In this document: one piece after another, positions 31,448 through 60,009 of the stretch
How the letters are laid out: every line of letters begins with the position of its first letter
Position numbering within the stretch: the first letter of the stretch is position 1
From: a virus
Lineage: Duplodnaviria; Heunggongvirae; Uroviricota; Caudoviricetes
Virus record (IMG/VR): IMGVR_UViG_3300027151_000220
Strand: one strand, 5' to 3'
DNA: 64,000 bases
The notes under the pieces: model-generated
Told to the model about the DNA's origin: nothing
Databases searched by the model: none
The model's input: only the letters and a program-made list of their open reading frames with translations
Position numbers and translations under genes: made by a program

Positions 31448-31620
31448 TGAAGATCGTTACATCATTCGCTATTATTTTTGCTATCTTTTATTTTGGCATT
31501 CAAGCATTTTGTGCGTTGACTGGTAAACAGAAGTGGCATGTTTCTAAACTTTTATCATACAGTTTAGTGTGTGCAGTTCTGACTGGTTTATTTTTGGTCG
31601 GTATCGTTGTTTTATTTTAA
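31444..31620 (+). CDS. small membrane protein (58 aa, two predicted TM helices)
   Basis: ATGATG overlapping the upstream stop. MMKIVTSFAIIFAIFYFGIQAFCALTGKQKWHVSKLLSYSLVCAVLTGLFLVGIVVLF. Not in the ORF track because it is under 60 aa. Confidence 0.35.
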   Translation: MMKIVTSFAIIFAIFYFGIQAFCALTGKQKWHVSKLLSYSLVCAVLTGLFLVGIVVLF

Positions 31621-31630
31621 GGAAATTATT

Positions 31631-33147: not shown

Positions 33148-33152
33148 GATCA

Positions 33153-33797
33153 ATGACTCGAACAGATATATTCACCTATCCTATTTGGCAGTGGAAAGAT
33201 CTGCCAATAGATAATGAAAAAATATCTAGCCATGCTTATACACTAAGAAGTAAAGATCCTGAGCATAGAAACCCAGAGGGACATAGTAAATATTCTTTAA
33301 AGTGGAAGAGTTATAATTTAACTAAAAAAGACTTTTTAGCATTCCCAGAAACTAAAAAGTTAATTGGTTTAATTTTTGAAAATGCAAAGACTTGTTTTAA
33401 TGAGTTAAATCCAAGACCAACAGTTAATTTGGTTTTGGATTCTTGTTGGTTCAATATATATCCTCCAGGATCTAATCTAGAAAGCCATCCACATCCAGGG
33501 AATGTATTAGCTGGATCATACTACCCTAAAGTACCTTTAGAATCTGGCGATCTGGTTTATTTGCATCCAGATATTAGTACATATTTTAATTATGCAGCCA
33601 AATATTTCCATAACAGAAATAATATAACTGCAGTTAAACATTACGTTACACCAGTTGAAGGTGCGTTAGTTTTAGCACCTGCAAATATTATGCATGCCGT
33701 AAGAGAAAATAAATCTGAAGGTGATAGGATTTCTTTTTCGTTTAATTTTGGGGTTGTTGATGTAGATACCTATACACCCAATGATAGGTATTTTTGA
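33153..33797 (+). CDS. 2OG-Fe(II) oxygenase superfamily protein
   Basis: HPHPGN...D and ...NIMHAV (HxD/H facial triad spacing) with an RISFSFNF C-terminal strand. Family common in marine T4-like phages. Alternative GTG start at 33144. Confidence 0.5.
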   Translation: MTRTDIFTYPIWQWKDLPIDNEKISSHAYTLRSKDPEHRNPEGHSKYSLKWKSYNLTKKDFLAFPETKKLIGLIFENAKTCFNELNPRPTVNLVLDSCWFNIYPPGSNLESHPHPGNVLAGSYYPKVPLESGDLVYLHPDISTYFNYAAKYFHNRNNITAVKHYVTPVEGALVLAPANIMHAVRENKSEGDRISFSFNFGVVDVDTYTPNDRYF

Positions 33798-36307: not shown

Positions 36308-36532
36308 ATGTTATCAGCATTAAACACATCTATCGATACTGTATCAGGTATCAAAACTCAATTCGTTAAGACTTTCGTTCAAAACGAAGAAGTAGCAAAA
36401 TCCCTCCAAACTTACATCGATGCTCAGCAATCATTTGCTAAGACTGTCGCTAAATCAACTGTAGATTTTTTCACTACAGTAGGTACAGCAGCAACTTCAT
36501 TTGATGCTAAGAAAGTATTCGGAACTAAGTAA
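36308..36532 (+). CDS. hypothetical small protein
   Basis: 74-aa ORF with strong SD AAAAGGAGAA, first gene after the structured region. Confidence 0.4.
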   Translation: MLSALNTSIDTVSGIKTQFVKTFVQNEEVAKSLQTYIDAQQSFAKTVAKSTVDFFTTVGTAATSFDAKKVFGTK

Positions 36533-36542
36533 GGAGAACATT

Positions 36543-37019
36543 ATGAATCGTCAATTTATCCCAAACTTGTGGAATGATAAAGAACTAGAAAAATTCTTTA
36601 TTGGATTTGATAAGACTCTTTCTCAATATAAAGAGATGCATGATCAGATCACCAAAAATATTCCTAACTATCCTCCATACAACATTCGTAAGAACAGTGA
36701 GAACTCATATACAATCGAATTGGCTGTAGCTGGTTTCTCTAAGCAAGACATCGATATCGAGATTGATGGTGGCAAGTTAGTAATCAAAGGTAATGTTAAT
36801 AGCGTATCTGATGATGAAAACTTTGTATTTAAGGGTATTGCTAATCGTGCGTTCACTCGTTGGTTTGCTCTTGAAGATAATGTAGAAGTTAAAGACGCAG
36901 AACTTTTTAATGGTATGTTGAAGATTGCTTTAGAGCGTCTAACACCTGAAGAAAGTAAACCAAAGAAAGTTGCTATTAAGTCTAAAGGTGAGAAACAATT
37001 ATTGAATGAGGAGAAATAA
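36543..37019 (+). CDS. hsp20: small heat-shock protein (Hsp20/alpha-crystallin family)
   Basis: Alpha-crystallin domain: YTIELAVAGFSKQDIDIEIDGGKLVIKG ... AELFNGMLKIALER, a layout similar to IbpA/B. SD AAGGAGAA nearly identical to that of the preceding ORF. The track start 36501 is an over-extension. Confidence 0.8.
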   Translation: MNRQFIPNLWNDKELEKFFIGFDKTLSQYKEMHDQITKNIPNYPPYNIRKNSENSYTIELAVAGFSKQDIDIEIDGGKLVIKGNVNSVSDDENFVFKGIANRAFTRWFALEDNVEVKDAELFNGMLKIALERLTPEESKPKKVAIKSKGEKQLLNEEK

Positions 37020-38538: not shown

Positions 38539-38879
38539 TTCTCGCTAAAGAGATTACCGTATGGGATGTTGAGTATCGTCAACCAAACCATACATACCTC
38601 ATGAATAATTCAATGGATAAAATCATTGGGTACTTTAAGTGGAACAATCCAAAAGATTTTATGAAGTTCAAGAAACCTTTGGGATTCGATACTCGGTATC
38701 GGAAGTTTCAAATAATTAAACGCTATGAAGAGAAGACATCTAATAAACGATGGAAAATTCTTGGTAGTAAAGACCATGTGTATTATGTAGAAGAAACTGA
38801 GTCTGGTATGTCTTGTACTTGCATCGGTTACAAATATCATGGAAAATGTAAACATATTGAAGGAATTAAAAGTGAATAA
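38535..38879 (+). CDS. SWIM-type zinc-finger protein
   Basis: C-terminal CxCx7CxH (MSCTCIGYKYHGKCKHI). ATGA overlap with the upstream gene. Confidence 0.4.
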   Translation: MILAKEITVWDVEYRQPNHTYLMNNSMDKIIGYFKWNNPKDFMKFKKPLGFDTRYRKFQIIKRYEEKTSNKRWKILGSKDHVYYVEETESGMSCTCIGYKYHGKCKHIEGIKSE

Positions 38880-38886
38880 ATTTGCA

Positions 38887-39171
38887 ATGAATAAAATTAC
38901 TTCGGAGAAGCAAAAAGAAATTATGCTTATCTGCCAAGAGGAATGTGCAGAAGTTACACAAGCAATCAGTAAGGTGTTTCGTTTCGGGATTGATGGCGAA
39001 CACAATGGTGCAACTAATCGTGAACGTCTTGAAGAAGAGATCGGTGATTTGCTTTGTATGATCGAGATGATGATTGAAGAACAAATTATTGATGGTAATG
39101 CAGTGGCTCAAGCAGGAATTAAAAAGAAAGAGAAACTTGCTAAGTGGTCAAACATTAAGGTGGCAGCATAA
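38887..39171 (+). CDS. MazG-like nucleoside triphosphate pyrophosphohydrolase (small all-alpha type)
   Basis: EExxE (QEECAEVTQA) and EExGD (EEEIGDLLCMIEMM) metal-binding motifs. Start uncertain (track 38839, GTG 38872, ATG 38887). Confidence 0.5.
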   Translation: MNKITSEKQKEIMLICQEECAEVTQAISKVFRFGIDGEHNGATNRERLEEEIGDLLCMIEMMIEEQIIDGNAVAQAGIKKKEKLAKWSNIKVAA

Positions 39172-42947: not shown

Positions 42948-43251
42948 AATCAAAATATTAAACGTACCAATATTTCATTCGCACGACTATGCCATCGGTG
43001 GTAAGATGGTAGTGGGTAAAGCAGAGATGGATGAATCGTTTTCAACTCTATTACAAGATGGTGATGAAACAGCAATCATGCAGGTGAAAGAAAAACTAAC
43101 TCGAGATATGATAAAACATATGCTCGAGAATAGACTGGTTGAGTTTACTTACTACGATGATCCAATTACAATGAGACGATGCTTAACTGTAAGAGCATAT
43201 CTTGCACCCAATGATCAAGTTAAAATTTTAAGATTAGCAAACAAAATATGA
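42904..43251 (+). CDS. hypothetical protein
   Basis: ORF filling the gap before the polymerase (ATGA overlap). True start probably internal. Confidence 0.25.
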   Translation: MIVHWMLCNLCMVNKIKILNVPIFHSHDYAIGGKMVVGKAEMDESFSTLLQDGDETAIMQVKEKLTRDMIKHMLENRLVEFTYYDDPITMRRCLTVRAYLAPNDQVKILRLANKI

Positions 43252-45737
43252 TTTTTTATACGCACGTATTTCCCTTTGGTAACAAAATGTGTGTCAGAGG
43301 TTATGAAAACGGCAGAGCGTTTCAACGTAAGATCGACTTTTACCCAACACTTTATGTAACATCAAATAAAGCAGAGAGCCAGTGGCGCACACTCGATGGT
43401 CAAGTTATCGATGAAGTTAAACCTGGAACTGTAAAAGAAACACGTGAGTTCTTTGATCGTTACAAAGAAGTGCAGGGTTTCAACGTCTACGGAAACACTA
43501 ACTATGTTCACCAATATATCAGCGACACTTATGAGAGTGATGTTCGTTGGGATATGGAACAAATTAAAGTGTTCACCATCGACATTGAAACTGCAGTTGA
43601 AGATGGATTCCCTGATGTCAAACAGGCGAATGAAGAGATCTTACTAATCACAATCAAAGACTTTCAATCTAAGAGTATTATCACTTTCGGCACACGTGAG
43701 TTTGAAAATACTCGCAAGGATGTTACTTACTTCCGTTGCAAAGACGAGCAACAACTTCTCAAAGAGTTTATGATTTTCTGGCAACAGAATTATCCTGATG
43801 TTCTAACTGGATGGAACATTGGATTCTTTGACGTACCATATTTGACTAAACGTATTCAGCGTGAACTTGGCGAAGCAATCGCAGCCAAACTTTCACCATG
43901 GGGATATATCAATGAACGAAAGATCTTTGTTAAAGGTAACGAAGAAATTTCATTTGACATCCATGGTGTAAGCCAACTTGACTATCTTGACTTGTATAAG
44001 AAGTTCACTTATCAAAAGCAAGAGTCCTATCGTCTAGATTATATCGCAGGTGAAGAACTTGGTGATGCCAAGAAAGAAAACCCTGGAGATACATTTAAAG
44101 ACTTCTATACAAATTACTGGCAAGACTTCGTTGAGTATAACATTCACGACGTAGAGTTGGTTGACAAACTTGAAGATAAGATGCGACTGATTGAGTTGTG
44201 TCTTACCATGGCATACAATGCAAAGATTAACTATGAAGATGTATTCTCTCAGGTAAGAATGTGGGACGCCATCATCTATAATCACCTGCGTAAGAAACAT
44301 ATCGCCATTCCTACCAAGGTTGGTTCCAGTAAGAATGAAGCATTTGAAGGTGCTTTCGTTAAAGACCCATTGCTGGGTATGCATAAGTGGGTTGCTTCTT
44401 TTGACTTGAACAGTCTATATCCTCACTTGATTATGCAGTATAACATCTCACCAGAAACATTGAGTGGTGAGAAGATCTCATGCAACGTTGAACGTCTGCT
44501 CAATCAAGAAGTTGATACTGAATATTGTAAGCGTAGGGATCTTGCGTTGACTGCCAATGGCTGGACTTACCGCAGAGATATCAAAGGGTTCATGCCTGAG
44601 TTGATGGAGAAGATGTATTCAGACCGCAGTAAGTTCAAGAAGCAGATGCTGAAAGTTGAACAGGAATATCAGAACGACAAGTCCAAGAAAGAACTACTGA
44701 AAGAGATTAGTCGACTGAACAACCTGCAGATGGCAATGAAGATTGCTCTCAACTCTGCTTATGGTGCGATGGGTAATCAGTATTTCCGTTACTTTGATAT
44801 TCGCATGGCAGAAGGTATTACTACCAGTGGTCAACTATCGATTCGTTGGATGGCAAATGAGTTTAATCGTTATCTCAACAAGGTCATGAAGACAGAAGGT
44901 AAAGACTTTGTTATCGCCATTGACACAGATTCAATCTATCTAACATTGGAAGAACTGATCGAGAAAGTTTGCGAAGGTAAAACTGACGACCAGAAAATTA
45001 AATATATGGATAAGGTTTGCGAAGAGATCTTCCAACCATTCATTGACCAAACGTATCAAAAGTTGGGTGAGTATATGAACGCATACTCTCAGAAGATGAT
45101 TATGAAACGTGAGGTTCTTGCCGATAAGGGTATCTGGACTGCCAAGAAAAGATACATATTGAACGTACACAATTCTGAAGGAGTGCAGTATGCTAAACCG
45201 AAACTCAAAGTTATGGGGCTTGAAATGGTCAAGTCAAGTACACCTGCTGTTATTCGTGACAAACTTAAAGATTCGATCGAAGTTATTCTCAAGGGCAGTC
45301 AAGCGGACTTACACTCGTATATCGAAAAGTTCCGTGAAGAATTCAACCAAATGCCAGTAGAGGATATTGCTTTCCCACGTGGCGTAAATGGTTTGAGAAC
45401 ATATGCTGGTTCTCCGATCTATACCAAGGGAACACCTATCCATGTAAGGGGTTCACTACTTTACAATCATTATGTCAAGAAACTTGGACTTGAAAAGAAG
45501 TATCAGTTGATTAAAGAGGGTGAGAAGGTTAAGTTTGTATATGTGAGAAAACCAAATCCATTCCAGGAAGACGTTATCGCATTCCCGCAAAATCTACCGA
45601 AAGAGTTTGGTTTGCATGACTTTATTGATTATGAAACACAGTTTGAAAAGACATTCCTCGATGCAATGCAAACTGTAATCCAGCCGATTGGTTGGAATGT
45701 TGAAGCCAAGTCATCATTGGAGGATTTCTTTGGATAA
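43248..45737 (+). CDS. gp43: DNA polymerase (family B) with 3'-5' exonuclease domain
   Basis: Exo motifs FDIETA and YNIHDVEL, pol motifs DxxSLYPH, KIALNSAYGAMG, AIDTDSIY. 829 aa. Confidence 0.9.
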   Translation: MIFYTHVFPFGNKMCVRGYENGRAFQRKIDFYPTLYVTSNKAESQWRTLDGQVIDEVKPGTVKETREFFDRYKEVQGFNVYGNTNYVHQYISDTYESDVRWDMEQIKVFTIDIETAVEDGFPDVKQANEEILLITIKDFQSKSIITFGTREFENTRKDVTYFRCKDEQQLLKEFMIFWQQNYPDVLTGWNIGFFDVPYLTKRIQRELGEAIAAKLSPWGYINERKIFVKGNEEISFDIHGVSQLDYLDLYKKFTYQKQESYRLDYIAGEELGDAKKENPGDTFKDFYTNYWQDFVEYNIHDVELVDKLEDKMRLIELCLTMAYNAKINYEDVFSQVRMWDAIIYNHLRKKHIAIPTKVGSSKNEAFEGAFVKDPLLGMHKWVASFDLNSLYPHLIMQYNISPETLSGEKISCNVERLLNQEVDTEYCKRRDLALTANGWTYRRDIKGFMPELMEKMYSDRSKFKKQMLKVEQEYQNDKSKKELLKEISRLNNLQMAMKIALNSAYGAMGNQYFRYFDIRMAEGITTSGQLSIRWMANEFNRYLNKVMKTEGKDFVIAIDTDSIYLTLEELIEKVCEGKTDDQKIKYMDKVCEEIFQPFIDQTYQKLGEYMNAYSQKMIMKREVLADKGIWTAKKRYILNVHNSEGVQYAKPKLKVMGLEMVKSSTPAVIRDKLKDSIEVILKGSQADLHSYIEKFREEFNQMPVEDIAFPRGVNGLRTYAGSPIYTKGTPIHVRGSLLYNHYVKKLGLEKKYQLIKEGEKVKFVYVRKPNPFQEDVIAFPQNLPKEFGLHDFIDYETQFEKTFLDAMQTVIQPIGWNVEAKSSLEDFFG

Positions 45738-46284
45738 TATTAAAGTGATTAAAACAGGAATCAACGTATCAAAGATTCTTGCTCAATTAAAACTTTACAA
45801 AGATGATTGGAACTCTGAAGGTCAGATGAAAGGTGCTTCAACAGTCCAGAAAGAATTTGACTTCCCACAAATTAATGCAGGTGTTTTGCAATTAGTTATT
45901 GGTGGTGTTGAGAATGAAACGCAATATGTTGGTGACACTGAGTATTGCATTAAAACACCTGCGTATAACAGACACACAGAAATTGTTAGATTTATGAAAC
46001 GAAACTTCCACGACCATTCACGTTGTGGATTCTTGTCATTGCCAGTTGGTGGTTCTGTCGGCAAACATATAGACATCGGTAGTTATTATCAGACCAGAGA
46101 TCGTTACCATCTCTCCATCGCAGGTAGATACAAATATATGGTTGGAGATGAGGAATACATAGTAGAGCCAGGAACTTTGTTGTGGTTCAATAATAAATTG
46201 CAACATGGAACTGAAAATGTTGGCAATGAAGTTCGTGTAACCTTTGTATTCGATGTGCCACATCACAAATCTAACCCAAAATAA
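45688..46284 (+). CDS. cupin-fold protein, possible 2OG-dependent hydroxylase (AspH-like)
   Basis: GKHIDIG (HxD) and LQHGTEN (H) with beta-rich context. Start uncertain because it overlaps the polymerase 3' end. Confidence 0.35.
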   Translation: MVGMLKPSHHWRISLDNIKVIKTGINVSKILAQLKLYKDDWNSEGQMKGASTVQKEFDFPQINAGVLQLVIGGVENETQYVGDTEYCIKTPAYNRHTEIVRFMKRNFHDHSRCGFLSLPVGGSVGKHIDIGSYYQTRDRYHLSIAGRYKYMVGDEEYIVEPGTLLWFNNKLQHGTENVGNEVRVTFVFDVPHHKSNPK

Positions 46285-46336: not shown

Positions 46337-47404
46337 ATGAGTATACTAGATAAAATTCGCAAGAATAGTACGATTAAAGATTCTGCTATTCTATCACAAT
46401 CAAAGTTCTTCACAAAGAAGGATATGATTCCTACCACTGTCCCAGCAATCAATATTGCATTGTCTGGTCGTCTTGATGGTGGTTTGACTCCAGGTATCAC
46501 AATGTGGGCTGGACCAAGTAAACACTTCAAGACAGCATTCAGTTTGCTAATGGCTAAGTCTTATATGGACAAGTACCCCGATGCTGCGTTGCTTTTCTAC
46601 GACTCAGAGTTCGGCACACCTCAAGCATACTTTGATTCTTTCGGTATTGATACCGAGCGTGTTATCCATACACCACTTACTGACGTAGAGCAGTTGAAGT
46701 TTGACATCATGCAACAGCTACAAGGAGTTGAACGTGGCGACCATCTTATTATTGTTATTGATTCTATTGGTAATCTTGCGTCTAAGAAGGAAGTAGAAGA
46801 TGCACTTGATGGCAAATCTGTTGCTGATATGAGTCGTGCCAAACAGATGAAGTCATTGTTCCGTATGATTACACCACACCTGAACCTTAAAGATATTCCA
46901 TTGGTTGTTGTTAATCATACATATATGGAGATCGGTATGTTCCCCAAACCTATTGTCGGTGGTGGAACTGGTGCCATGTACTCTGCCGATAATGTATACA
47001 TTCTTGGTCGTCAACAAGAAAAAGAAGGGACTGAAGTTGTTGGATATAATTTTATTATCAATGTGGAGAAATCTCGTTATGTGCGTGAAAAATCTAAGAT
47101 TCCTGTTACTGTATATCATGATGGGGGTATTAGCCGTTGGTCTGGCTTACTTGATATCGCACTCGAGTCTGGGCATGTTGTCAAGCCAAGTAATGGTTGG
47201 TATAGTAAAGTAGATGCAGATGGTGTTATTGAAGATAAGAAGTATCGCCTGAAAGATACAGATACTAAAGACTTCTGGATGCCAGTACTTATGCAAAAGT
47301 CTTTCATTGAGTTTGTTAAAAACAAATATCAGGTAGGTTCAACAGATATCCTTAAAGATGAAGATATCGATGCAGAACTTGCTGCGATTGATGATGAAGA
47401 ATAA
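46337..47404 (+). CDS. uvsX: RecA-like recombinase UvsX
   Basis: N-terminus SKFFTKKDMIPTTVPAINIALSGRLDGGLTPGITMWAGPSKHFKTAF aligns to T4 UvsX (SKFFNEKDVVRTKIPMMNIALSGEITGGMQSGLLILAGPSKSFKSNF). Confidence 0.85.
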   Translation: MSILDKIRKNSTIKDSAILSQSKFFTKKDMIPTTVPAINIALSGRLDGGLTPGITMWAGPSKHFKTAFSLLMAKSYMDKYPDAALLFYDSEFGTPQAYFDSFGIDTERVIHTPLTDVEQLKFDIMQQLQGVERGDHLIIVIDSIGNLASKKEVEDALDGKSVADMSRAKQMKSLFRMITPHLNLKDIPLVVVNHTYMEIGMFPKPIVGGGTGAMYSADNVYILGRQQEKEGTEVVGYNFIINVEKSRYVREKSKIPVTVYHDGGISRWSGLLDIALESGHVVKPSNGWYSKVDADGVIEDKKYRLKDTDTKDFWMPVLMQKSFIEFVKNKYQVGSTDILKDEDIDAELAAIDDEE

Positions 47405-47405
47405 T

Positions 47406-47732
47406 ATGCGCAATTATGTTACTGTGCAAAATCGCAGTAATGGACATGATGCGATAAAGTTGACAGATGGTGCATATGAAGGTATAATTTATTCTTATGG
47501 TAAAGTTGGTTTCGAAGAAGATGAAGCCAACGATTCCTTGAAGATTAGTTTTGAATATGAGATTCTTGACTACAACGATAAGGTTATCACTGACATGAAA
47601 CCCTTTGAGAAATACATAGGTGATATCCTTCAAGATCTTATTCATGAAGGTATTGCGAATAATAATTTAACGTACACAGGTGGTGTTGATGAGAATAGAA
47701 CAGGCGATCCTATCGAACCTGATTCACAATGA
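47406..47732 (+). CDS. hypothetical protein (T4 gene 40 position)
   Basis: ATG directly after the uvsX stop. The ORF track start 47358 overlaps uvsX. Confidence 0.3.
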   Translation: MRNYVTVQNRSNGHDAIKLTDGAYEGIIYSYGKVGFEEDEANDSLKISFEYEILDYNDKVITDMKPFEKYIGDILQDLIHEGIANNNLTYTGGVDENRTGDPIEPDSQ

Positions 47733-49086
47733 GGAGTTCTGTCGTAAGGCAGTTCCTCATTTAAAGACTGAGTATTTTGCAGATCGTAAAGAAAGTGCTA
47801 TCGCTAAAATCTTAGTTGAGTTTTTTGAGCAGTATAATAAGCCAGCATCACCTGAGATTCTGGCTATTGAGATTGGCAATATCAAAGGGCTAACTGACAA
47901 AGAAGTTCCTGAGTTCCAAGAATATGCCAAACAGTTGACTAATAAAGAACCTAATGAAGAATGGTTGATTGGTCAGACTGAAAAGTTTTGTAAAGACAGG
48001 GCAGTTTATAATGCGATTCTTAAATCAATTCAAATTATCGATGGTAGGGACAAAGTGCATCAACAAGATGCGATACCTACTATTCTTAGTGAAGCACTTG
48101 GTGTTTGCTTTGATAATCATGTTGGTCATGATTACATTCAGGATGCTAATGATAGGTATGATTTTTATCACAGGGTGGAAGAGAAAATTGCTTTCGATCT
48201 TGAGATGTTCAACAAAATCACCAAAGGTGGACTCAGTAAGAAAACTTTGAACATTGCTTTGGCAGGAACAGGTGTTGGTAAATCGTTGTTTATGTGTCAC
48301 GTTGGAGCCAGTGTTCTTATGCAGGGTAAAAATGTTTTATACATAACAATGGAGATGGCTGAAGAACGTATCGCTGAACGTATCGATGCAAACTTACTTA
48401 ACCTAACCATGGATGAATTGAAAGTTGTTGATCGGGATATCTTTGATTCACGTCTACAGAAGATTGCTACAAAAACACAGGGAACACTGATTGTCAAAGA
48501 GTATCCAACTGCAGGTGCTCATGCTGGTCACTTCCGTGCTTTGTTGGAAGAGTTAAAACTTAAGAGAGAGTTTGCTCCAGATATTATCTTTATTGACTAT
48601 CTGAATATCTGTGCTTCATCTAGAATGAAACAAACCCATGGTGTAAACTCTTATACATATATTAAGGCTATCGCTGAAGAACTAAGGGGACTGGCAGTTG
48701 AATACAACGTACCTATTGTTAGTGCAACTCAAACAACTCGATCTGGATTTACAAACTCAGACCCAGGACTTGAGGACACTTCAGAATCTTTTGGACTCCC
48801 TGCGACAGCTGATTTCATGTTCGCACTTGTGAGTAATGAAGAACTTGAGCAGTTGAATCAGATTATCGTTAAGCAGTTGAAGAATCGTTACAACGACCCA
48901 AATTTCTACAAGAGGTTTGTCGTTGGTATCGATAGATCTAAAATGAAGTTATATGATGTTGAAGTTTCTGCGCAAGCAGGGCTATCAGATGTTGGAACTA
49001 AAGAAAAAGACGAACCATTGTTTGATAAATCAGATTTTGGTAAACGACTACATAGTGAGAACGAGTTTAGTGGATTTAAGTTTTAG
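47689..49086 (+). CDS. gp41: replicative DNA helicase (DnaB-like)
   Basis: N-terminus MRIEQAILSNLIHNEEFCRKAVPHLKTEYF aligns with T4 gp41 (MVEIILSHLIFDQAYFSKVWPYMDSEYF). Walker A AGTGVGKS, Walker B IIFIDYLN, arginine-finger region. Confidence 0.85.
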   Translation: MRIEQAILSNLIHNEEFCRKAVPHLKTEYFADRKESAIAKILVEFFEQYNKPASPEILAIEIGNIKGLTDKEVPEFQEYAKQLTNKEPNEEWLIGQTEKFCKDRAVYNAILKSIQIIDGRDKVHQQDAIPTILSEALGVCFDNHVGHDYIQDANDRYDFYHRVEEKIAFDLEMFNKITKGGLSKKTLNIALAGTGVGKSLFMCHVGASVLMQGKNVLYITMEMAEERIAERIDANLLNLTMDELKVVDRDIFDSRLQKIATKTQGTLIVKEYPTAGAHAGHFRALLEELKLKREFAPDIIFIDYLNICASSRMKQTHGVNSYTYIKAIAEELRGLAVEYNVPIVSATQTTRSGFTNSDPGLEDTSESFGLPATADFMFALVSNEELEQLNQIIVKQLKNRYNDPNFYKRFVVGIDRSKMKLYDVEVSAQAGLSDVGTKEKDEPLFDKSDFGKRLHSENEFSGFKF

Positions 49087-49095
49087 GAGAGAGAA

Positions 49096-50397
49096 ATGAC
49101 AGTTAAAGTTATTGTCGCTGATAAAAAGATTGATTGTAAACATTTGATTGGTCAATTCGTTGACGAGAATCATTACGACCATCTTATCGAAGAAGATACT
49201 GATGTTTATATGCCAGCACCTTATGGTGAAGATCCTATCAATGAAGACAGGATTGTATTGAAGTTCCGTAAGAACTTCTTCACCAAAGAACAACAAGACC
49301 AAGCGTATGCAGGTCTTCGTGAAGCTGCAACTGAAACACAGAATCGTGGCGCAGCAGCAGGTCCACGTGGTGAGAAGTTGGGTAATCGTGAATGGGTTAC
49401 TGAGTATGAATCTGAGATGGTTGAATACTTCCTTGACCCATACTCTGGTCTTGCAGGAGATCCTGTAGAAGATATTATCAAACGCTATAAGGGTAAACCA
49501 CCTACTCCATCTAATCGCAATAATGTTTGGTCGATTGAAAGAACTAAGTCAACCAATTTTAATTTCGATCAGTGGGTTGAGAAAGTGCGTACACTTCCAC
49601 GACAAGAACAAATTAAAGAAGCAAACTTTGTTGCTGATGAATTGATTTGTGCAACCACTTACGCTAACTCAGTTTATTCTGGCATCGCAGGTTGGTTCGA
49701 TCGTTATCCTCGCATTCCTTATGGTCGTGCAACATCTTACACTGCCAAGAATCCTGAGAAGTTTGCACTTGCTTACCCATTCCTACAAACATTGTCAAAT
49801 GGTTTTAGGGATCTACTACCACAGCGTTATGAAGCACAGATGAAAGCAGCGAGACAAGTTGATCCTCGTTTCCTAGTTCCTGGAACTCCATTCACAACTG
49901 TTACTGTGAATAAAACATTCAGAACTGCTGCTCACTATGACGTTGGCGATTTAAATAGTGGTCTTTCAAATCTACTAACTTTGTCAAATGATGGACGTTA
50001 CAGTGGTGGTTATTTGATTGCACCTGAGTATCGTGTTGCTGTTAATCCACGTCCAGGCGACTTGCTATTGATTAACAACCATGATGTTATGCATGGCAAC
50101 ACTCCTATCGTTTGTGAAGAAGGTTCTGAGCGTATCAGTTTGGTTTGCTACTTCCGTGAGAAGATGCTTGAGTTGGGTTCTTGGGAATATGAGAACTGTC
50201 GTTATGACTTCGTTGAACAACGTCGCAAGAATCCTGAACATCCGATGCAACGTAAACTTTGGAATGGTGTTTCCGAAGGTATGTGGACTTCTGACGAGTG
50301 GTACGACTATTGTCGTGAAAAACTTGGAGATGAAATCCTAATTAAATATCATCCAGAATCAATGAAGTCTGGATCACTTGATGAATTTTTTGCGTAA
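49096..50397 (+). CDS. 2OG-Fe(II) dioxygenase with TET/JBP-like DSBH core (candidate nucleic-acid base hydroxylase)
   Basis: Residues ~270-380: TVTVNKTFRTAAHYDVGD (HxD) ... GGYL ... PGDLLLINNHDVMHGNTP (distal His) ... RISLVCYFR (2OG-binding Arg) in the order and spacing of TET/JBP-family enzymes. Long N-terminal domain of unknown function. Immediately upstream of a glucosyltransferase-like gene. Confidence 0.5.
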   Translation: MTVKVIVADKKIDCKHLIGQFVDENHYDHLIEEDTDVYMPAPYGEDPINEDRIVLKFRKNFFTKEQQDQAYAGLREAATETQNRGAAAGPRGEKLGNREWVTEYESEMVEYFLDPYSGLAGDPVEDIIKRYKGKPPTPSNRNNVWSIERTKSTNFNFDQWVEKVRTLPRQEQIKEANFVADELICATTYANSVYSGIAGWFDRYPRIPYGRATSYTAKNPEKFALAYPFLQTLSNGFRDLLPQRYEAQMKAARQVDPRFLVPGTPFTTVTVNKTFRTAAHYDVGDLNSGLSNLLTLSNDGRYSGGYLIAPEYRVAVNPRPGDLLLINNHDVMHGNTPIVCEEGSERISLVCYFREKMLELGSWEYENCRYDFVEQRRKNPEHPMQRKLWNGVSEGMWTSDEWYDYCREKLGDEILIKYHPESMKSGSLDEFFA

Positions 50398-50405
50398 GGT
50401 TTATT

Positions 50406-51413
50406 ATGTCACTACATGAGTTTCTAGGTGAAGAAAGGTTGTTAGAGTGGTTCTATTCAAAGAACTCTAGCAATACTGGAACTAAAATTGGTTATCGCAG
50501 AGTTTCTGGTAAGATTGGTTTGACCAACAAAGAGAATGGTGTTCGTGGAGCATGGGTAGAGAAACGTGTTGCTCTGTTCAAGAACATGCTTGATTTTGGT
50601 CATCGAATCATTCCACTATCAGAAGCAACTGATGCAACCAAAGATGATGGGTTTGAAACATTTGACACATATCAAGATTGTGATGTTCTCATGCTTGAGT
50701 TTGGTGGAACTAATTTGCAGTTCTATCAGAAGTACTGGGATAAAACTGTTGAGATGATTAAAGCACATAAGGGTCGCATCATCTTTTTGAATGACGATCC
50801 AGATCTTCCATTCCTTTGGGAGTTGTTACCTGATGAAGATTGGTCACGTTGGACTATTGCAGCCAATGCGACTGAGTGTAATGAAGTTGCAACTATCCTG
50901 AAGTGTCCTATCGGAACTACAACTGTTGATTTACCCATGGCATCTGGTATGGAGTTTGCTGAATTTCATCCAGGTAATATTGAGAAGGTGGTTTACATTG
51001 GTAGACCAAATGGCAGAACCAAATACTTCAAAGAGTTTACTTCTTCACGTTGTCTTCAAGTTGCAGGTAAAGAAGCTGAATGGGATGATTTTGAAGCACT
51101 TGAGATTCTACCAAACCCACAGCAAAGAGATCGTAGAAAGTTCTATCAACAGTTCTATGGCTGTCTAGCTGTCTATGACGATAAACATAAGAAGTCTGGT
51201 TGGAGAACTGGTCGTGCATATCATGCTCTTTATGCAGGTATTCCTGTCTGCGCACCGAAAGGTAACAATGGTTTGAATTGGTGTTTCCCTACAGATACCA
51301 AAATGGAGTTGGATAAGTTTGCGTCATTCCCAGAGGAAGTCCGTAGAAATATCTGGGAAAAGCAGAAAGCTGTTGTAGAAAAGACTGGAAAGGTTGATCC
51401 ATTAATCCTATGA
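50406..51413 (+). CDS. DNA beta-glucosyltransferase-like protein (GT-B fold)
   Basis: RIIFLNDDPDLPFLWELLPD aligns to T4 beta-gt YYLFTDIRLPFSQSWPN. Similar length (335 vs 351 aa) and C-terminal block pattern (VVYIGRPNGRT / VIYGGSFRSGQR). Confidence 0.5.
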   Translation: MSLHEFLGEERLLEWFYSKNSSNTGTKIGYRRVSGKIGLTNKENGVRGAWVEKRVALFKNMLDFGHRIIPLSEATDATKDDGFETFDTYQDCDVLMLEFGGTNLQFYQKYWDKTVEMIKAHKGRIIFLNDDPDLPFLWELLPDEDWSRWTIAANATECNEVATILKCPIGTTTVDLPMASGMEFAEFHPGNIEKVVYIGRPNGRTKYFKEFTSSRCLQVAGKEAEWDDFEALEILPNPQQRDRRKFYQQFYGCLAVYDDKHKKSGWRTGRAYHALYAGIPVCAPKGNNGLNWCFPTDTKMELDKFASFPEEVRRNIWEKQKAVVEKTGKVDPLIL

Positions 51414-51862
51414 TAGTTTCTTATGACATCGATGGGGTTCTGGCTGCTCAGCCACCGCCATCCGAAATGAAGTGGGGTAAAATGAATGGGGTTCAAAGAA
51501 AGGCTAGGAAGGACTTTTTGTACGATTGGTACGAGAATGCCGAGAAACTTATAGAGCCAGTTGAGACCCAATTTTACGCCATTTCTGCAAGAAAACGAGA
51601 GCCAAGAATACATACAATCACAAAAGACTGGCTGAATAAATATTATGGTGGAAGAGTAATTTCCTTCCATCTTCTAGATAATACCAGAACTGTTGAAAAT
51701 GTAGTCCGATTTAAGTCCGAAAGGGTGCTTGAATTGGGTATACAACGACATTATGAAGACAACAAAAAAGTACTGAGAGGGATGCGCAAACTGTTACCCC
51801 AAACTGTTGAGTTGTATTTTTGGGAAAGGGGTATGCAGGAGCCAGTTCCTTTTATCAAATAG
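51410..51862 (+). CDS. HAD-superfamily phosphatase-like protein (putative nucleotidase)
   Basis: N-terminal motif I SYDIDGVLA (DxDG[VT]). 150 aa. ATGA overlap. Confidence 0.4.
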   Translation: MIVSYDIDGVLAAQPPPSEMKWGKMNGVQRKARKDFLYDWYENAEKLIEPVETQFYAISARKREPRIHTITKDWLNKYYGGRVISFHLLDNTRTVENVVRFKSERVLELGIQRHYEDNKKVLRGMRKLLPQTVELYFWERGMQEPVPFIK

Positions 51863-53527: not shown

Positions 53528-53546
53528 AACTGTATAGATGGGTAAA

Positions 53547-54740
53547 ATGAAGTCGTTCCAAACATTCCTTAAAGAAGAAACCGAAGAAGAGAAACTGAAG
53601 CACATCCATCATGTAGAGGATCGCCCTCTATTCCATGGTTCTTCAGGGTTCGAACATGCTCTTGGTGCACTAAACCATGGACATGAACACATTAAAGCTG
53701 GGAAACAATCCAGCGATCTGACCATGAAATATGACGGATCGCCATCATTGGTTTTTGGAAAGCATCCAGAAACTGGAAAATTCTTTGTTGCTTCCAAGTC
53801 AGCGTTCAATAAAAACCCAAAAATCAACTATACTGCTAAGGACATTGACAAGAACCATGGTCATGCTCCAGGTCTCGCAGAAAAATTAAAGCATGCTCTA
53901 AAACATCTACCAAAGGTTGCACCTAAGCAAGGTGTATATCAGGGTGACGTTATGCACTCTGAGGGTGATGTTAAATATGATGAGAAGAAGGGAACTGCTT
54001 CTTATACACCAAATACAATTAAGTATACTGCGCATGGCGATGAAGCCAAGAAAACAGCCCAATCTAAATTTGGGTTAGTTGTTCACCAAAAATATGAGGG
54101 TAAAGATTTTGCTTCGATGAAAGCAACTCCTCATCCTGATATGAAAAGTTTTGGTCAACACAAAGATGTGCATCTTGCTGGTGCCGAGCATGATACTAGC
54201 AAAGTTAAATATACTCAAGCAGATCAGAAAAGATTCCAAAGCCACATGAATGCTGCAAAAGATATTCATGATAAACACGGCGATAAGATGTATGGTGCGA
54301 TCCATCCAGAACACAAAGGTGATGCTGGACATTTGGGAACTTACATCAATCAAACAGTTCGCAAAGATACAAAACCAAACGCAAAAGGATTCATTAAACA
54401 TATTCAGGATGTTTATGAAAAGAAAGCGTCTAAACTAAAGTCTGAGAAGGGACAAACTGCTCAGCGTAATCTTGGTTCTGGTCACGCTGCGCATGTTGAG
54501 AAAAATAAAGAGCATTATGAGAATCTATTTAAAATGCATCAGCATTTACAGCAAGGTAAAAACCTTTTAGTTAAGAATTTAAACCAGCATACTGGCGGTC
54601 TTGAGCATCATATTGGAGATAAGAAAACAGATCCTGAGGGATATGTTATAAATTATACGCACAAAGGTAAACAAGAACCATCTAAAATTGTTAATCGTGC
54701 AGAATTCAGTAAAGCCAACTTATTAAAGCCAAGAAAATGA
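53547..54740 (+). CDS. His/Lys-rich internal head protein candidate with N-terminal capsid-targeting sequence
   Basis: Start at the second ATG (MKSFQTFLKEETEEE), downstream of the -10 element. The leader matches the T4 CTS MKTYQEFIAE. 25% His+Lys. Confidence 0.5.
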   Translation: MKSFQTFLKEETEEEKLKHIHHVEDRPLFHGSSGFEHALGALNHGHEHIKAGKQSSDLTMKYDGSPSLVFGKHPETGKFFVASKSAFNKNPKINYTAKDIDKNHGHAPGLAEKLKHALKHLPKVAPKQGVYQGDVMHSEGDVKYDEKKGTASYTPNTIKYTAHGDEAKKTAQSKFGLVVHQKYEGKDFASMKATPHPDMKSFGQHKDVHLAGAEHDTSKVKYTQADQKRFQSHMNAAKDIHDKHGDKMYGAIHPEHKGDAGHLGTYINQTVRKDTKPNAKGFIKHIQDVYEKKASKLKSEKGQTAQRNLGSGHAAHVEKNKEHYENLFKMHQHLQQGKNLLVKNLNQHTGGLEHHIGDKKTDPEGYVINYTHKGKQEPSKIVNRAEFSKANLLKPRK

Positions 54741-55351
54741 AGACATTTAAATCTTATATTGTAGAATCAGAAAAAGACGTTCATCATGTTCTTGCTTTTG
54801 GTCGAATGAATCCTCCAACTGCTGGTCATGAGAAACTCGTAACCCATATGCATGATACTGCCAAGAAACATAATGCAGAACATACATTGGTATTATCAGG
54901 TTCGCATGCAACTAAAGACGGATCTAATCCATTACCACCTGATGTTAAAAAGAAACATGCAGAGAGAGCATTTCCTGGAACCAATGTTAAGGTAGCTGAT
55001 AAAGAACATCCTACTGTTCTTCATCATGCTGCTGAGTTGCACAAAAAAGGTGTTACTCATTTACACTTTGCTGGTGGCGATGATCGTAAACCAATGCATG
55101 AATTGATTAAAAAGTATAATGGAAAAGAAGGTCCACATGGACATTACAATTTCAAGAGTATAAAGTTCCACAATGCAGGTAAACGTGATCCAAATGCAAA
55201 AGGAACTGAAGGTATTTCTGGAACTAAACTTCGTGGTCACGCTGCAGCTGGTGAACAGAAAAAGTTTGAATCTCATCTATCGTCACAGATGAAACCAGAA
55301 CATAAAACAGAATTGTATCACGACTTACGTAAACATATGGGTGTAAAGTAA
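54737..55351 (+). CDS. CTS-tagged nucleotidyltransferase (cytidylyltransferase/NMNAT-like fold)
   Basis: MKTFKSYIVESE leader. HVLAFGRMNPPTAGHEKLV (GxFxxxHxGH motif) and GISGTKLRG (ISxTxxR motif) at canonical spacing (~150 aa). Confidence 0.55.
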   Translation: MKTFKSYIVESEKDVHHVLAFGRMNPPTAGHEKLVTHMHDTAKKHNAEHTLVLSGSHATKDGSNPLPPDVKKKHAERAFPGTNVKVADKEHPTVLHHAAELHKKGVTHLHFAGGDDRKPMHELIKKYNGKEGPHGHYNFKSIKFHNAGKRDPNAKGTEGISGTKLRGHAAAGEQKKFESHLSSQMKPEHKTELYHDLRKHMGVK

Positions 55352-57196: not shown

Positions 57197-59077
57197 ATGA
57201 AAGATTACAGACAACTAATCAAAGAACTACCGTCCAGTACTATTGTTTGTGCAGTTAGCGAGTTTAACCCTCCTACAATCGGTCACGAACTACTAGTCAA
57301 GACAGTCAAAAAACTGGCAGAACAAAAAAATTCTGACCACGTAATCTATACATCCCCATCTAAGAACAGTATTATCCAAGAAGATAAGAAAGAACATTAT
57401 CTAAATTTAATGTTCCCAAATACTTCTTTTAAAAGTATCACATCTTTATCGGAAACGATTAAAGATTTGTCGCAGAAGTATAAACATGTTGTATTGGTTG
57501 TCGGCAGCGAACAATCAGCCAGCTTGAAAAAAATTGTTAAAGAATCAAGTTCCATTCAGATTATTTCTACTTTAGATAAAGACCCAGATGTAAATTCTTC
57601 AAAGATGAAATCTTTTGCTACTAAAGGAATTTTTGAAGAGTTTAAGAAAAAGTTGCCAAGTTCTGTTCGTGAGTTAGATGGTCGTCGTTTGATGAACGAT
57701 GTCCGTATTACGATGGGTTTAGAACCAATTAAAGAGCAGCTTAATTTGGTCAAAGATACTGTACGTGAACAATATTTCCGTGGTGAAATTTTTAATGTCG
57801 GAGATATCGTTGAATGTAGTGGAGAAAAATTAGCAGTAGTTAAACGTGGCTCAAACCATTTACTACTTAAAGAAGCTAGTGGCAAATTAGTTTCTAAATG
57901 GATACAAGACGTAATACCAACGGAAGAAAAAGAAATGAACGAAGACTTAACAGATAAGACTTTAAAAACCAACGATAAGATTAAAGTTGCTCGAGTAATC
58001 GCAACTATGCTTGGTGTGGATAAAGTTGAGGCAACTGCAAACGCTGAGTTGCTTGTTAATACTGCACTACGCAGAATCAAATCCAAGACTTTGAATCCAG
58101 AAGCATTGAACATTGTTAATAAGATGTTACAACTGGCTAACCAAGTTGGTATTCAATATGACACAAATTTAATTCCACAGAAACTTACTCAAGAAGAAAC
58201 TTCTTTGGATGAAGCAACTCCATATTATAATAAACCTTCTTTCATCAAGAGAATGTCTCGCATGGCGAAACAAGAAAGACAGGAACGTGAGAAAAAAGAA
58301 AAAGAACAGAAGAAAGATGTAAAAGAGAATCACTGCAAACCTGGACATAGTTTAGTTGAACCAGGAGCATCTGAAACTTTACGCAAACAAAAAATTAAAC
58401 AACAATTGGGTGAAGTAGCTCCAGTTGATGTGAGCAAAGTTAATCATGCTGGCGATGAACCACATGATGAAGAATGGGAAGATACTGGTATTTGTCCAGT
58501 ACACAACGTAAAGCATGGCGAAGAAGGATGTGAACACACTAGAGATGTGTTAGAAAAAGAATTAGATCTTACTGATGAAGAAATCGATCACATTATTAAT
58601 ACTACACCAGATGATGAATTCATCGATGAGTATGAAGATGATGAGTTTGGTATTATCGATCCAGATACTGGCGAAGAATATGACGATGAAGAATGTGCTT
58701 GCACAATGCAAGAGCAAGCAATTCTGGAAGTTCTTTCAAGAACAGAACGTATGCGTGCAAGAGTTCGTTTTGCAAAATCTAAGGCTAAGCGTGAACGTAA
58801 AGCATCCATCGCATTAAGAACTCGTGCCACCACTAAGACTACAAACAAACGTGCACGTCGTCTTGCAATTAAGTTAATGAAGAAACGTCTACTCCGTGGT
58901 CGTGACTATAACAAACTTTCAGTTGGAGAGAAAGAGCGTGTAGAAAGAGTTATTCAAAGACGCAAACAAGTTATCGGTCGTGTAGCAATGAAACTTGTTC
59001 CACGTATTCGTGCTGTTGAGAAAGCAAGATTATCACATACAAAATATACTAAAGGATCTGGAAATGTTGCGTTTTAA
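57197..59077 (+). CDS. large CTS-tagged protein with N-terminal HxGH nucleotidyltransferase-like domain and acidic/basic C-terminal half
   Basis: MKDYRQLIKEL leader. IVCAVSEFNPPTIGHELLV is paralogous to 54737 (FGRMNPPTAGHEKLV). C-terminal Cys/His cluster (CPVHNVKHGEEGCEH) and Arg/Lys-rich tail. Confidence 0.5.
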   Translation: MKDYRQLIKELPSSTIVCAVSEFNPPTIGHELLVKTVKKLAEQKNSDHVIYTSPSKNSIIQEDKKEHYLNLMFPNTSFKSITSLSETIKDLSQKYKHVVLVVGSEQSASLKKIVKESSSIQIISTLDKDPDVNSSKMKSFATKGIFEEFKKKLPSSVRELDGRRLMNDVRITMGLEPIKEQLNLVKDTVREQYFRGEIFNVGDIVECSGEKLAVVKRGSNHLLLKEASGKLVSKWIQDVIPTEEKEMNEDLTDKTLKTNDKIKVARVIATMLGVDKVEATANAELLVNTALRRIKSKTLNPEALNIVNKMLQLANQVGIQYDTNLIPQKLTQEETSLDEATPYYNKPSFIKRMSRMAKQERQEREKKEKEQKKDVKENHCKPGHSLVEPGASETLRKQKIKQQLGEVAPVDVSKVNHAGDEPHDEEWEDTGICPVHNVKHGEEGCEHTRDVLEKELDLTDEEIDHIINTTPDDEFIDEYEDDEFGIIDPDTGEEYDDEECACTMQEQAILEVLSRTERMRARVRFAKSKAKRERKASIALRTRATTKTTNKRARRLAIKLMKKRLLRGRDYNKLSVGEKERVERVIQRRKQVIGRVAMKLVPRIRAVEKARLSHTKYTKGSGNVAF

Positions 59078-59562: not shown

Positions 59563-60009
59563 ATGAATGAAACTTTAGTTACTGCGAAAATTTGCTTAGC
59601 AAATACATTCTTAATGTATTTTAAGGCACAATCTTATCATTGGAACTTGGAAGGGATGTTCTTTCCACAGTATCATGAATTTTTTGGCAATCTTTATGAA
59701 GAAATTTATGGAGCAGTTGATCCAATGGCAGAAGAGATGCGTGCGCTTGATGAGTATGCTCCAAAGAATATAGAAGAAATGTATAAAGTTACAACTATCG
59801 ATAATGATAATAACGCTAGTAATGTAACTGAAATGCTGCAAGATTTACAAGAAGCCAACAATAAAACCATCGAGAGCCTAAATAAACTGTTCGATCTATT
59901 ATCGAAAGACAAAGAGCAGGGTTTTGCTGATTTTATTGCTGGAAGATTGGATGCTCACAAGAAACATGGTTGGATGATACGTTCCAGCTTAAAGAAAATT
60001 GGAGAATAA
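59563..60009 (+). CDS. Dps-like ferritin-superfamily protein
   Basis: LANTFLMYFKAQSYHWNLEGMFFPQYHEFFGNLYEEIYGAVDPMAEEMRALDEYAP matches the Dps helix A/B ferroxidase-site pattern (..HWNV.G..F..LH..FEE.Y.E....D..AER...LG). Confidence 0.6.
   Translation: MNETLVTAKICLANTFLMYFKAQSYHWNLEGMFFPQYHEFFGNLYEEIYGAVDPMAEEMRALDEYAPKNIEEMYKVTTIDNDNNASNVTEMLQDLQEANNKTIESLNKLFDLLSKDKEQGFADFIAGRLDAHKKHGWMIRSSLKKIGE

Follow-up and report, generated by a model that had tools for sequence, protein, structure and literature searches.

A TET/JBP-family dioxygenase gene linked to a predicted DNA glycosyltransferase gene in a freshwater T4-like phage

Layout of the locus

The window analyzed here (the whole 64,000-nucleotide stretch of IMG/VR record IMGVR_UViG_3300027151_000220) comes from a freshwater T4-like phage with a genome of ~166 kb, and megablast against 50,697 phage records returned no near-identical isolate for this region. 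Three genes, ORF1, ORF2 (referred to as X) and Y, follow one another directly downstream of a gp41-type helicase gene (Table 1), which is matched by a T4 gp41 query in phmmer (E = 8e-98). They sit in the T4-type replication and recombination module (uvsX-41 region). Only 9 nt separate the end of gp41 from the start of ORF1, and the start of Y overlaps the end of X by 4 nt; we propose that Y is translationally coupled to X. No terminator-like site was found from gp41 through the end of Y, and the helicase and the cassette probably share one transcript, for which the promoter-like site upstream of gp41 is a candidate early promoter.

Table 1. Genes and sites of the gp41-TET-X-Y region; positions are those of the window.
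Feature	Position	Strand	Basis
Sigma-70-type promoter-like site, TTGACA-17-TATAAT, 12/12, upstream of gp41	47460..47488	+	Consensus match only
gp41-type replicative helicase, upstream neighbor of TET	47680..49086	+	Pfam DnaB_C
ORF1, TET/JBP-family Fe(II)/2OG 5-methylpyrimidine dioxygenase (5mYOX), long form, 433 aa	49096..50397	+	
ORF2 (X), predicted DNA (hydroxymethylpyrimidine) glycosyltransferase, GT-B fold, family without annotation	50406..51413	+	
Y, 150 aa, HAD-superfamily-like motif pattern, third conserved cassette member	51410..51862	+	

Protein families of the cassette

ORF1 is a TET/JBP-family dioxygenase, as the first-pass annotation had read it, and not an AlkB-type enzyme or a protein hydroxylase. 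Residues 211-355 match PF12851 at 85.5 bits (cutoff, 34.9; E = 3e-24), and the iron triad (H280, D282, and H333) and the 2OG-binding R346, which occur in TET/JBP order (HxD...H, then Arg), do not vary across 43 sequences with identities as low as 44%. The catalytic DSBH domain (approximately residues 190-366) lies between a conserved extension at the N terminus and a helical tail at the C terminus, and in fold it resembles TET enzymes more closely than it does AlkB, prolyl hydroxylases, or small-molecule oxygenases. The enzyme is predicted to oxidize the C5-methyl group of T or 5mC in DNA. Two further ideas about this protein were dropped: that its N-terminal extension is a fused ParB (hhalign probability, 0.1%), and that the residue three positions after the HxD Asp discriminates substrates, a position that is uninformative (D285 here, D or S in long TETs, and N in TET2 as well as in ParB-linked TETs). 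The family has 2848 metagenome relatives; orthologs in Cr30, DLP6, S-CBWM1, and HTVC112P are misannotated as "SNF2 DNA repair protein," which is corrected here.

X was said in the same annotation to resemble T4 beta-gt, and this is true of its fold and not of its sequence. X has a two-Rossmann-domain GT-B fold, and its nearest structure is T4 DNA beta-glucosyltransferase (BGT); at the sequence level, there is no significant Pfam match (the best is Prokineticin, E = 0.26), no tblastn match among the 50,697 phage records, T4 included, and no match in PHROG or NCBIfam, and hhalign against T4 BGT gives a probability of 5%. Distant relatives of X likewise have no match to the T4 beta-GT Pfam model (PF09198). 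An exhaustive profile search for X yielded only 120 representatives. Since no sequence- or profile-level link to T4 BGT was found, X is not assigned to GT63, the T4 beta-GT sequence family. A 344-aa ORF downstream of the C48C1 TET was also considered as a remote X homolog and rejected (hhalign not significant). Mapped by eye from motif and secondary-structure position, invariant R200/R204 (GRPNGR) and R270 (RAYH) of X line up with SFRSGQR and RVWE of BGT, in which R191, R195, and R269 are presumably the UDP-phosphate-binding Arg residues. By the same mapping by eye, from motif and secondary-structure position, invariant D131 (DDPDLPF) lines up with TDIRLPF of BGT, whose catalytic Asp is D100 (Pyle et al., bioRxiv 10.1101/2023.12.21.572611). 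X may share the catalytic Asp and phosphate-binding Arg motifs of T4 BGT. We predict that it is a DNA (hydroxymethylpyrimidine) glycosyltransferase.

Y carries the motifs DxDGVL, S-A-R-K, K, and E-D-N, and an alignment of 19 sequences has D6, D8, G9, S59, K62, K102, E116, D117, and N118 invariant. HAD motif order is kept, with motif I at D6-x-D8-G-V-L, II at S59, III at K102, and IV at E116-D117, and the protein is 48-59% identical across otherwise unrelated phage contexts. In a Pfam scan of 19 members, the best match was HAD_SAK_2 (E = 0.18, not significant). Nothing significant came from NCBIfam or a PDB profile search either, nor from an hhalign comparison with an NT5C-like phage protein. 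Placement in a recognized HAD family is not supported by these profiles; at the level of motifs, Y is a putative HAD-like phosphatase. The analysis thus flags two protein families without annotation, Y and X, the latter now with a fold-level assignment.

Conserved linkage and the choice of base

We surveyed 80 IMG/VR loci containing X. Of the 77 that were assessable for it, 76 have a TET/JBP gene next to X, and Y comes right after X in 70 of 74. Both T4-like and siphovirus-like backbones are represented, and no fewer than four distinct backbones and gene orders occur; it is this near-obligate adjacency across unrelated phage backbones that supports functional coupling of TET and X. The pairing of a hydroxylating and a glucosylating enzyme, as first proposed, is supported by this linkage, although as a two-gene unit it missed the third member, Y. 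Where the identity of the partner TET falls to only 23%, X and Y still share 45-48%, and the pair moves between very different phages. In 14 related loci, X-Y is accompanied by a ParB+TET pair (in one of them, L084, the ParB-linked TET is 46% identical to the catalytic domain of the window TET), and in Cr30, whose TET ortholog has ~45-47% identity, an amino-acid:DNA transferase gene (AADT; PF18724, E = 1e-52) is located 1.7 kb away from the TET gene. Two downstream cytidylyltransferase-like ORFs (54737-55351 and 57197-59077), only subthreshold in Pfam, were considered as sugar-activating partners and rejected, as they are not conserved with X-Y elsewhere. It is quite improbable that X glycosylates a non-DNA acceptor (protein, lipid, or small molecule) while TET leaves 5hmU or 5hmC as a final mark or targets RNA.

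The hydroxymethyl group could in principle be made before or after replication, and the genes missing from the locus bear on this. Cytosine-C5 methyltransferases and gp42 homologs were sought with Pfam lists, phmmer with Dcm and gp42 as queries, and a motif-IV regular expression with a positive control. Neither was found in the window plus flanks of -10 kb to +20 kb (~94 kb of the ~166-kb genome) or in 160 related loci (~1.96 Mb), and no C5 methyltransferase of the PF00145 type lies within 10 kb of X in the 80 loci. The gp42/ThyA family had no match in any of these regions (window, flanks, and 160 related loci) at a cutoff as loose as E ≤ 10; a DNMK query had no phmmer match in the window or flanks; and the window holds no ParB gene, AADT, or kinase. 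The earlier statement that no gp42, kinase, or cytosine methyltransferase is visible in the 64 kb therefore holds, and for gp42 and the methyltransferase, the absence extends to ~30 kb of flanking sequence. ThyX (PF02511) is the one thymidylate synthase that was seen, and the phage therefore makes dTMP. A T4 route in which hmdCMP or hmdUMP from an unrecognized hydroxymethylase is built into DNA by the polymerase and then glycosylated by X, with TET unrelated, would fit a gene order like that of the T4 replication module holding 42 and beta-gt, as well as the DNMK-type kinase and dCMP deaminase found near the cassette in the related phage UFOVP49. The lack of any gp42/ThyA-family match in the window, flanks, or 160 related loci, of a second thymidylate synthase seen beside ThyX, and of a dNMP kinase in the window speaks against this route, which would also leave the obligate TET-X adjacency unexplained, and we regard it as highly improbable.

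If the hydroxyl group is added on DNA, the substrate could be thymine or 5mC, both of which had been put forward at the outset, and the evidence leans to thymine. A cytosine version, in which a C5 methyltransferase elsewhere in the phage genome or in the host makes 5mC, TET converts it to 5hmC, and X glycosylates the product, is consistent with the closest solved structures of ORF1 being 5mC dioxygenases, with the closest structure of X being an hmC-specific enzyme, and with the use of 5hmC by published bGT-like GT-B phage glycosyltransferases (bioRxiv 10.1101/2023.12.21.572611); in addition, ~70 kb of the genome lies outside the ~94 kb covered by the methyltransferase search. Such a pathway would yield T4-like glucosyl-hmC after replication, as in published clade A/B phage TET systems. 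We consider it unlikely, since no methyltransferase or gp42 was found in the window, flanks, or 160 related loci, and since characterized 5mC-type phage TETs adjoin their own C5 methyltransferase, whereas T-type enzymes do not (PMC8256090; PMC13229309). Thymine is favored further because X-Y also follows ParB+TET pairs, the architecture of validated T-dioxygenases (PMC13229309), because the Cr30 ortholog lies near AADT, a 5hmU-pathway enzyme, and because the phage encodes ThyX.

From the observed families, folds, and conserved linkage, we infer a three-gene post-replicative cassette that would convert thymine to 5hmU on DNA and then, via X, to base-J-like glycosyl-5hmU; we give this reading a probability of roughly 0.55. 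The TET/JBP dioxygenase, with Fe(II), 2-oxoglutarate, and O2, would add a hydroxyl to the C5-methyl of thymines in phage DNA, yielding 5-hydroxymethyluracil; X would then flip out the hydroxymethylated base and transfer a sugar from a nucleotide-sugar to the hydroxymethyl oxygen, giving base-J-like glycosyl-5hmU. Y may assist, perhaps by removing a phosphate, either on the donor or on the sugar once attached, and the purpose would likely be to shield phage DNA against host nucleases. In duplex DNA, T4 beta-GT requires a mispair with G to glucosylate 5hmU (PMC4111573), so a BGT-like fold alone is no predictor of activity on 5hmU:A, and for some ParB-less clade C1 phage 5mYOXs no activity in E. 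coli was seen on either T or 5mC (PMC13229309). We advance more tentatively, as a possibility, that the cassette makes a phage analogue of base J in which an enzyme with the T4 bGT fold replaces the GT-A JGT and Y adds a new step, for example by dephosphorylating a phosphosugar that X would have put on DNA, much as a GT-B synthase is paired with a HAD phosphatase in OtsA/OtsB; such a system would be at work in freshwater T4-like phages, which are abundant, and would be exchanged horizontally with ParB-TET siphoviruses.

If glycosylation of 5hmU by this cassette is true, there are two unrelated ways for T4-like phages to arrive at a glycosylated pyrimidine, one pre- and one post-replicative, and the beta-GT fold is reused for the sugar step in both T4 and the post-replicative route. 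The locus would also offer an abundant, concrete cassette for natural glycosyl-5hmU in phage DNA, which is predicted but not demonstrated in the cited literature. Such DNA modifications affect restriction and CRISPR evasion as well as the sequencing read quality of phage DNA.

Comparison with known modification systems

Relative to T4, the route is non-canonical, as had been suggested, but it is not new: phage 5mYOX/TET clusters with GT-B enzymes resembling T4 bGT have been published (PMC8256090; bioRxiv 10.1101/2023.12.21.572611), and the cassette is a solid further example of a pathway already described in phage metagenomes, not a new principle. In those clusters, as predicted here, a post-replicative TET/JBP enzyme makes a hydroxymethyl handle that a neighboring glycosyltransferase decorates; like X, the subclass III glycosyltransferases (GT53/66/94) are GT-B enzymes with T4 bGT as their best structural match (Burke et al. 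2021, PMC8256090; Pyle et al. 2023/2024, bioRxiv 10.1101/2023.12.21.572611). A HAD-like enzyme and a cytidylyltransferase are further members of one published cluster (PMC8256090; bioRxiv 10.1101/2023.12.21.572611). The characterized clusters, however, act on cytosine and include a C5 methyltransferase gene next to the TET, and no such gene was found here; their TETs are ~290-300 aa, whereas the enzyme here is 433 aa and lies in a T4-like replication module. Further differences are the lack of a detectable sequence family for X and the stand-alone nature of the 150-aa Y.

The published phage T-dioxygenases (O'Toole et al. 2026, PMC13229309) resemble the present case in having no neighboring C5 methyltransferase and in their frequent glycosyltransferase linkage; they convert T to 5hmU on DNA, as is predicted here, and their ParB-dependent architecture is also seen where X-Y adjoins ParB+TET pairs. 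The window TET differs in that it has no ParB partner and that its N-terminal extension does not resemble ParB, and a glycosyl-5hmU product is not reported for these enzymes (O'Toole et al. 2026, PMC13229309).

Thymidine hypermodification by the 5-HMUDK kinase and AADT or aGPT-Pplase likewise decorates 5hmU, and the Cr30 TET ortholog lies near an AADT; in the window, which has no kinase or AADT, the decorating enzyme would instead be a glycosyltransferase. The T4 gp42 and beta-glucosyltransferase system shares with the predicted pathway a sugar on a C5-hydroxymethyl pyrimidine, and X has the BGT fold, but in T4 the hydroxymethyl group is made on dCMP by a ThyA-like enzyme, while here it would be made by an oxygenase on DNA, and neither gp42, a dNMP kinase, nor sequence-level BGT homology was found. 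In the trypanosomatid base J pathway, JGT has a GT-A fold (Pyle et al., bioRxiv 10.1101/2023.12.21.572611), in contrast to the GT-B fold of X, the J-binding or SWI2/SNF2 domains of the JBPs are missing from the enzyme here, and Y has no counterpart; it is with JBP1/JBP2 and JGT, nonetheless, that the cassette would share its predicted chemistry, hydroxylation of thymine followed by glycosylation of 5hmU.

The cassette and its place in the replication module

Both ORFs named in the first-pass annotation are present in the window, namely ORF1, a TET/JBP-type Fe(II)/2OG dioxygenase (TET), and X, a candidate GT-B glycosyltransferase; together with Y, a short ORF with HAD-like motifs, they form a cassette directly downstream of the gp41 helicase gene. 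Upstream of TET the order is DNA polymerase, a cupin-type ORF, uvsX, and gp41, and the gaps gp41-TET, TET-X, and X-Y are 9, 8, and -4 nt. A sequence fully matching the sigma-70 consensus (TTGACA-17-TATAAT) stands upstream of gp41, and nothing resembling a terminator was found from gp41 through Y; together with the tight gaps, this makes coexpression of the cassette with the helicase probable.

The window comes from the genome of a T4-like phage known from metagenomes; JGI contig Ga0255075_1000005 matches it, the same phage was also recovered as a 166-kb ENA contig, and no near-identical isolate was found among 50,697 phage records. A gp61 primase homolog (phmmer against T4 gp61, E=7e-56) lies ~1 kb past the window end, at ~16 kb from gp41 on its downstream side. 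Next come ThyX and the large and small ribonucleotide reductase (RNR) subunits; the gp41-gp61 interval holds the cassette and ~13 kb of mostly uncharacterised genes.

Positions of the features discussed, in the window or in the related locus or flanking contig named
Feature	Sequence	Position	Strand	Length
dGTP_diPhyd_N (PF18909) ORF	window	31109-31447	+	
Band_7	window	31607-32422		
2OG-FeII_Oxy_5 (PF13759)	window	33144-33797	+	
HSP20 region	window	36501-37019		
MazG-like ORF	window	~38839-39171	+	
DNA polymerase	window	43248-45737		
Cupin-type ORF	window	45688-46284	+	
uvsX	window	46337-47404		
Sigma-70 consensus	window	47460-47488		
gp41 helicase	window	47680-49086		
ORF1 (TET)	window	49096-50397	+	433 aa
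X	window	50406-51413	+	335 aa
Y	window	51410-51862	+	150 aa
DUF6267 ORF	window	53538-54740	+	
Cytidyltransferase-like ORF	window	54737-55351	+	
Cytidyltransferase-like ORF	window	57197-59077	+	626 aa
Ferritin	window	59563-60009		
gp61 primase homolog	L014	14974-16005		
ThyX, RNR subunits	L014	15990-19698		
Fatty-acid desaturase	L014	19698-20405		
DctP solute receptor	L015	1-852		
DLP6 TET ortholog	L001	5998-7344		
DLP6 TET neighbours	L001	4271-5962, 8559-9416		
Cr30 TET ortholog	L002	5998-7326		
Cr30 TET neighbours	L002	9024-11161, 11290-12471		
C48C1 TET neighbours	L003	7317-9349		
SulP-type gene	L006	12315-13430		
X homolog, no TET or Y	L087	8032-9045		
Split TET or X frames	L016	3003-4254		
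	L065	2923-4223		
	L070	3041-4047		

Several other genes in the region were noted. The cupin-type ORF (cupin/Asp-Arg-hydroxylase-like; PF05118, 9e-07; Cupin_2, 2e-06; PHROG 32420) occupies the T4 slot of gene 42 and beta-gt, and the gp45 clamp and gp44 clamp-loader genes flank a second 2OG-Fe(II) oxygenase. The dGTP_diPhyd_N ORF is of the nucleotide-pool pyrophosphohydrolase type, as is a weak MazG-like ORF. Beyond Y, a DUF6267 ORF carries a KYDG motif reminiscent of ligase/nucleotidyltransferase motif I, and two ORFs match PHROG "cytidyltransferase" (E=1e-48 and 8e-33; Pfam CTP_transf_like subthreshold); these three could form an activated-sugar supply or RNA-repair set and are not conserved alongside X-Y in other contexts. 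Host-like auxiliary genes, of a kind typical for aquatic T4-like phages, include ferritin, HSP20, and Band_7 in the window and a DctP TRAP-transporter solute receptor and a fatty-acid desaturase in the flanks.

The dioxygenase, the predicted glycosyltransferase, and their linkage

ORF1 matches Pfam Tet_JBP (PF12851) with E=3e-24 and 85.5 bits (gathering cutoff, 34.9). The double-stranded beta-helix motifs proposed earlier were located at residues 278, 331, and 346, and an alignment of 43 sequences, extending down to 44% identity, shows no variation at H280, D282, H333, or R346. AlkB-type enzymes, prolyl hydroxylases, and small-molecule oxygenases score <=13.4, so that the refuting check proposed earlier comes out for TET/JBP. 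Characterised phage TET enzymes measure ~290-300 aa (PMC13229309); the TET of the window is a long form, whose N-terminus is extended by a conserved stretch of ~190 aa and whose C-terminal tail is helical. Reading the extension as a ParB domain was considered and rejected, since it is not ParB-like. The family is large (2848 relatives at E<=1e-3), with orthologs in Stenotrophomonas phage DLP6 (49% identity), Caulobacter phage Cr30 (45%), phage C48C1 (42%), and Synechococcus phage S-CBWM1 (30%). The label "SNF2 DNA repair protein" on the DLP6, Cr30, S-CBWM1, and HTVC112P proteins is a misannotation, as the orthologs match PF12851 and not SNF2.

The likening of X to T4 beta-glucosyltransferase (BGT) held for the fold, which is BGT-like with resembling motifs, but not for the sequence family. 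X has no significant match in Pfam, PHROGs, or NCBIfam; tblastn against the phage collection found nothing, hhalign against the T4 BGT sequence stayed at noise level, and a profile search run exhaustively over 1.84 billion representatives returned only 120 relatives, with none of ten of the most distant matching a T4 beta-GT model in Pfam. By these comparisons X lies outside any known sequence family. Its family-invariant residues cluster in short BGT-like motifs at matching predicted secondary-structure positions: D130-D131-P-D-L-P-F against T99-D100-I-R-L-P-F of T4 BGT (D131 to D100), G199-R200-P-N-G-R204 against S189-F-R191-S-G-Q-R195 (R200 to R191, R204 to R195), and R270-A-Y-H273 against R269-V-W-E272 (R270 to R269). 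D100 is cited as the accepted catalytic Asp of T4 BGT in Pyle et al. (bioRxiv 10.1101/2023.12.21.572611). The mapping was made by eye from motifs and predicted secondary structure, and the active-site equivalence is suggestive.

The Y start overlaps the X stop by 4 nt. HAD-like motifs recur without variation in Y (D6-x-D8-G-V-L, S59-A-R-K62, K102, and E116-D117-N118); no profile search that we ran gave a significant match for it. We annotated 80 IMG/VR loci with X relatives locally, using TET, X, Y, and ParB profiles. A TET/JBP gene adjoins X in 76/77 assessable loci, and Y follows X in 70/74; the one assessable exception to TET-X linkage is an X homolog (47% identity) on a 15-kb contig carrying neither TET/JBP nor Y. 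The genes recur in at least four contexts: gp41-TET-X-Y in the window's lineage, TET-X-Y-Anp1-like-DNMK in the UFOVP49 lineage, ParB-shortTET-X-Y-terminase in siphovirus-like contigs with WhiB, and ParB-X-Y-shortTET. X and Y are 45-48% identical where the catalytic domain of the partner TET is just 23% identical. X-Y is thus a mobile pair dependent on some TET/JBP enzyme, and this mobility with constant reliance on such an enzyme argues that what TET produces is used by X-Y. Some strains of the window's phage have a gene for a SulP-type sulfate transporter (PF00916) placed exactly between X and Y, breaking their overlap, and an X-Y gap of ~1.1 kb also occurs in L020 and L029. In three other loci the TET or X frame is split into two ORFs, which could reflect assembly errors or decaying copies.

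We put the probability that ORF1 and X are a DNA dioxygenase and DNA glycosyltransferase pair at roughly 0.8.

Thymine or cytosine as the modified base

In the proposed pathway, TET would first hydroxylate the methyl group of thymines in freshly replicated phage DNA; the resulting 5hmU would be glycosylated by X, and Y would act together with X; by analogy with pairs of GT-B synthase and HAD phosphatase, a plausible guess is that Y removes phosphate from the donor or adduct. We consider this full thymine-to-glycosyl-5hmU route slightly better than an even bet.

In published systems phage 5mC dioxygenases adjoin their methyltransferase, and phage enzymes without such a neighbour are T-dioxygenases, some of them ParB dependent (PMC8256090, PMC13229309). 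The earlier observation that the window lacks a C5 methyltransferase, gp42/ThyA-type hydroxymethylase, and dNMP kinase was borne out and extends to 10 kb upstream and 20 kb downstream. Neither C5 methyltransferase nor gp42 was found in ~1.96 Mb of related loci with E. coli Dcm and T4 gp42 as queries and a motif-IV regex, for which Dcm served as a positive control. The phage encodes ThyX, with ribonucleotide reductase, just past the window and so makes dTMP. Thymine is favoured over cytosine since X-Y occurs beside ParB and TET pairs, a ParB-linked TET (locus L084) is 46% identical to the window TET in the catalytic domain, and the Cr30 ortholog lies with a 5hmU-pathway enzyme. We infer thymine rather than assert it because the phage-genome search covered ~94 kb of the ~166 kb, T4 BGT acts on duplex 5hmU only opposite G (PMC4111573), some ParB-less clade C1 enzymes were inactive in E. 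coli (PMC13229309), and no substrate-diagnostic residue was found in the TETs.

Relation to known phage hypermodification systems

The concept of TET-fed hypermodification in phages is already published (Burke 2021, PMC8256090). Glycosyltransferases associated with 5mYOX enzymes include T4 bGT-like GT-B enzymes, and one 5mYOX cluster that also encodes a HAD-like enzyme and a cytidylyltransferase makes heptosyl-5hmC (Pyle 2023/2024, bioRxiv 10.1101/2023.12.21.572611); phage T-dioxygenases often adjoin glycosyltransferases, and 31% of the pathways mined include a glycosyltransferase (O'Toole 2026, PMC13229309). The "one primer enzyme, variable decorators" layout of phage 5mYOX clusters is also seen for orthologs of the window's TET. 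In Cr30 the neighbours are an amino-acid:DNA transferase (AADT, PF18724, E=1e-52), a weak TAGT match, and inositol-1-phosphate synthase; in C48C1, an uncharacterised 344-aa ORF and UDP-galactopyranose mutase; and in DLP6, a nucleotidyltransferase/APH protein and an Anp1-like glycosyltransferase. These three isolates may carry uncharacterised thymidine hypermodifications. What the present locus adds to the phage TET/5mYOX literature compared is a long-form TET located between gp41 and gp61 in a T4-like replication module; the assignment of a fold to the unannotated glycosyltransferase family of X; a conserved X-Y pairing without prior description there; and a good candidate for natural phage glycosyl-5hmU, which that literature predicts but does not demonstrate.
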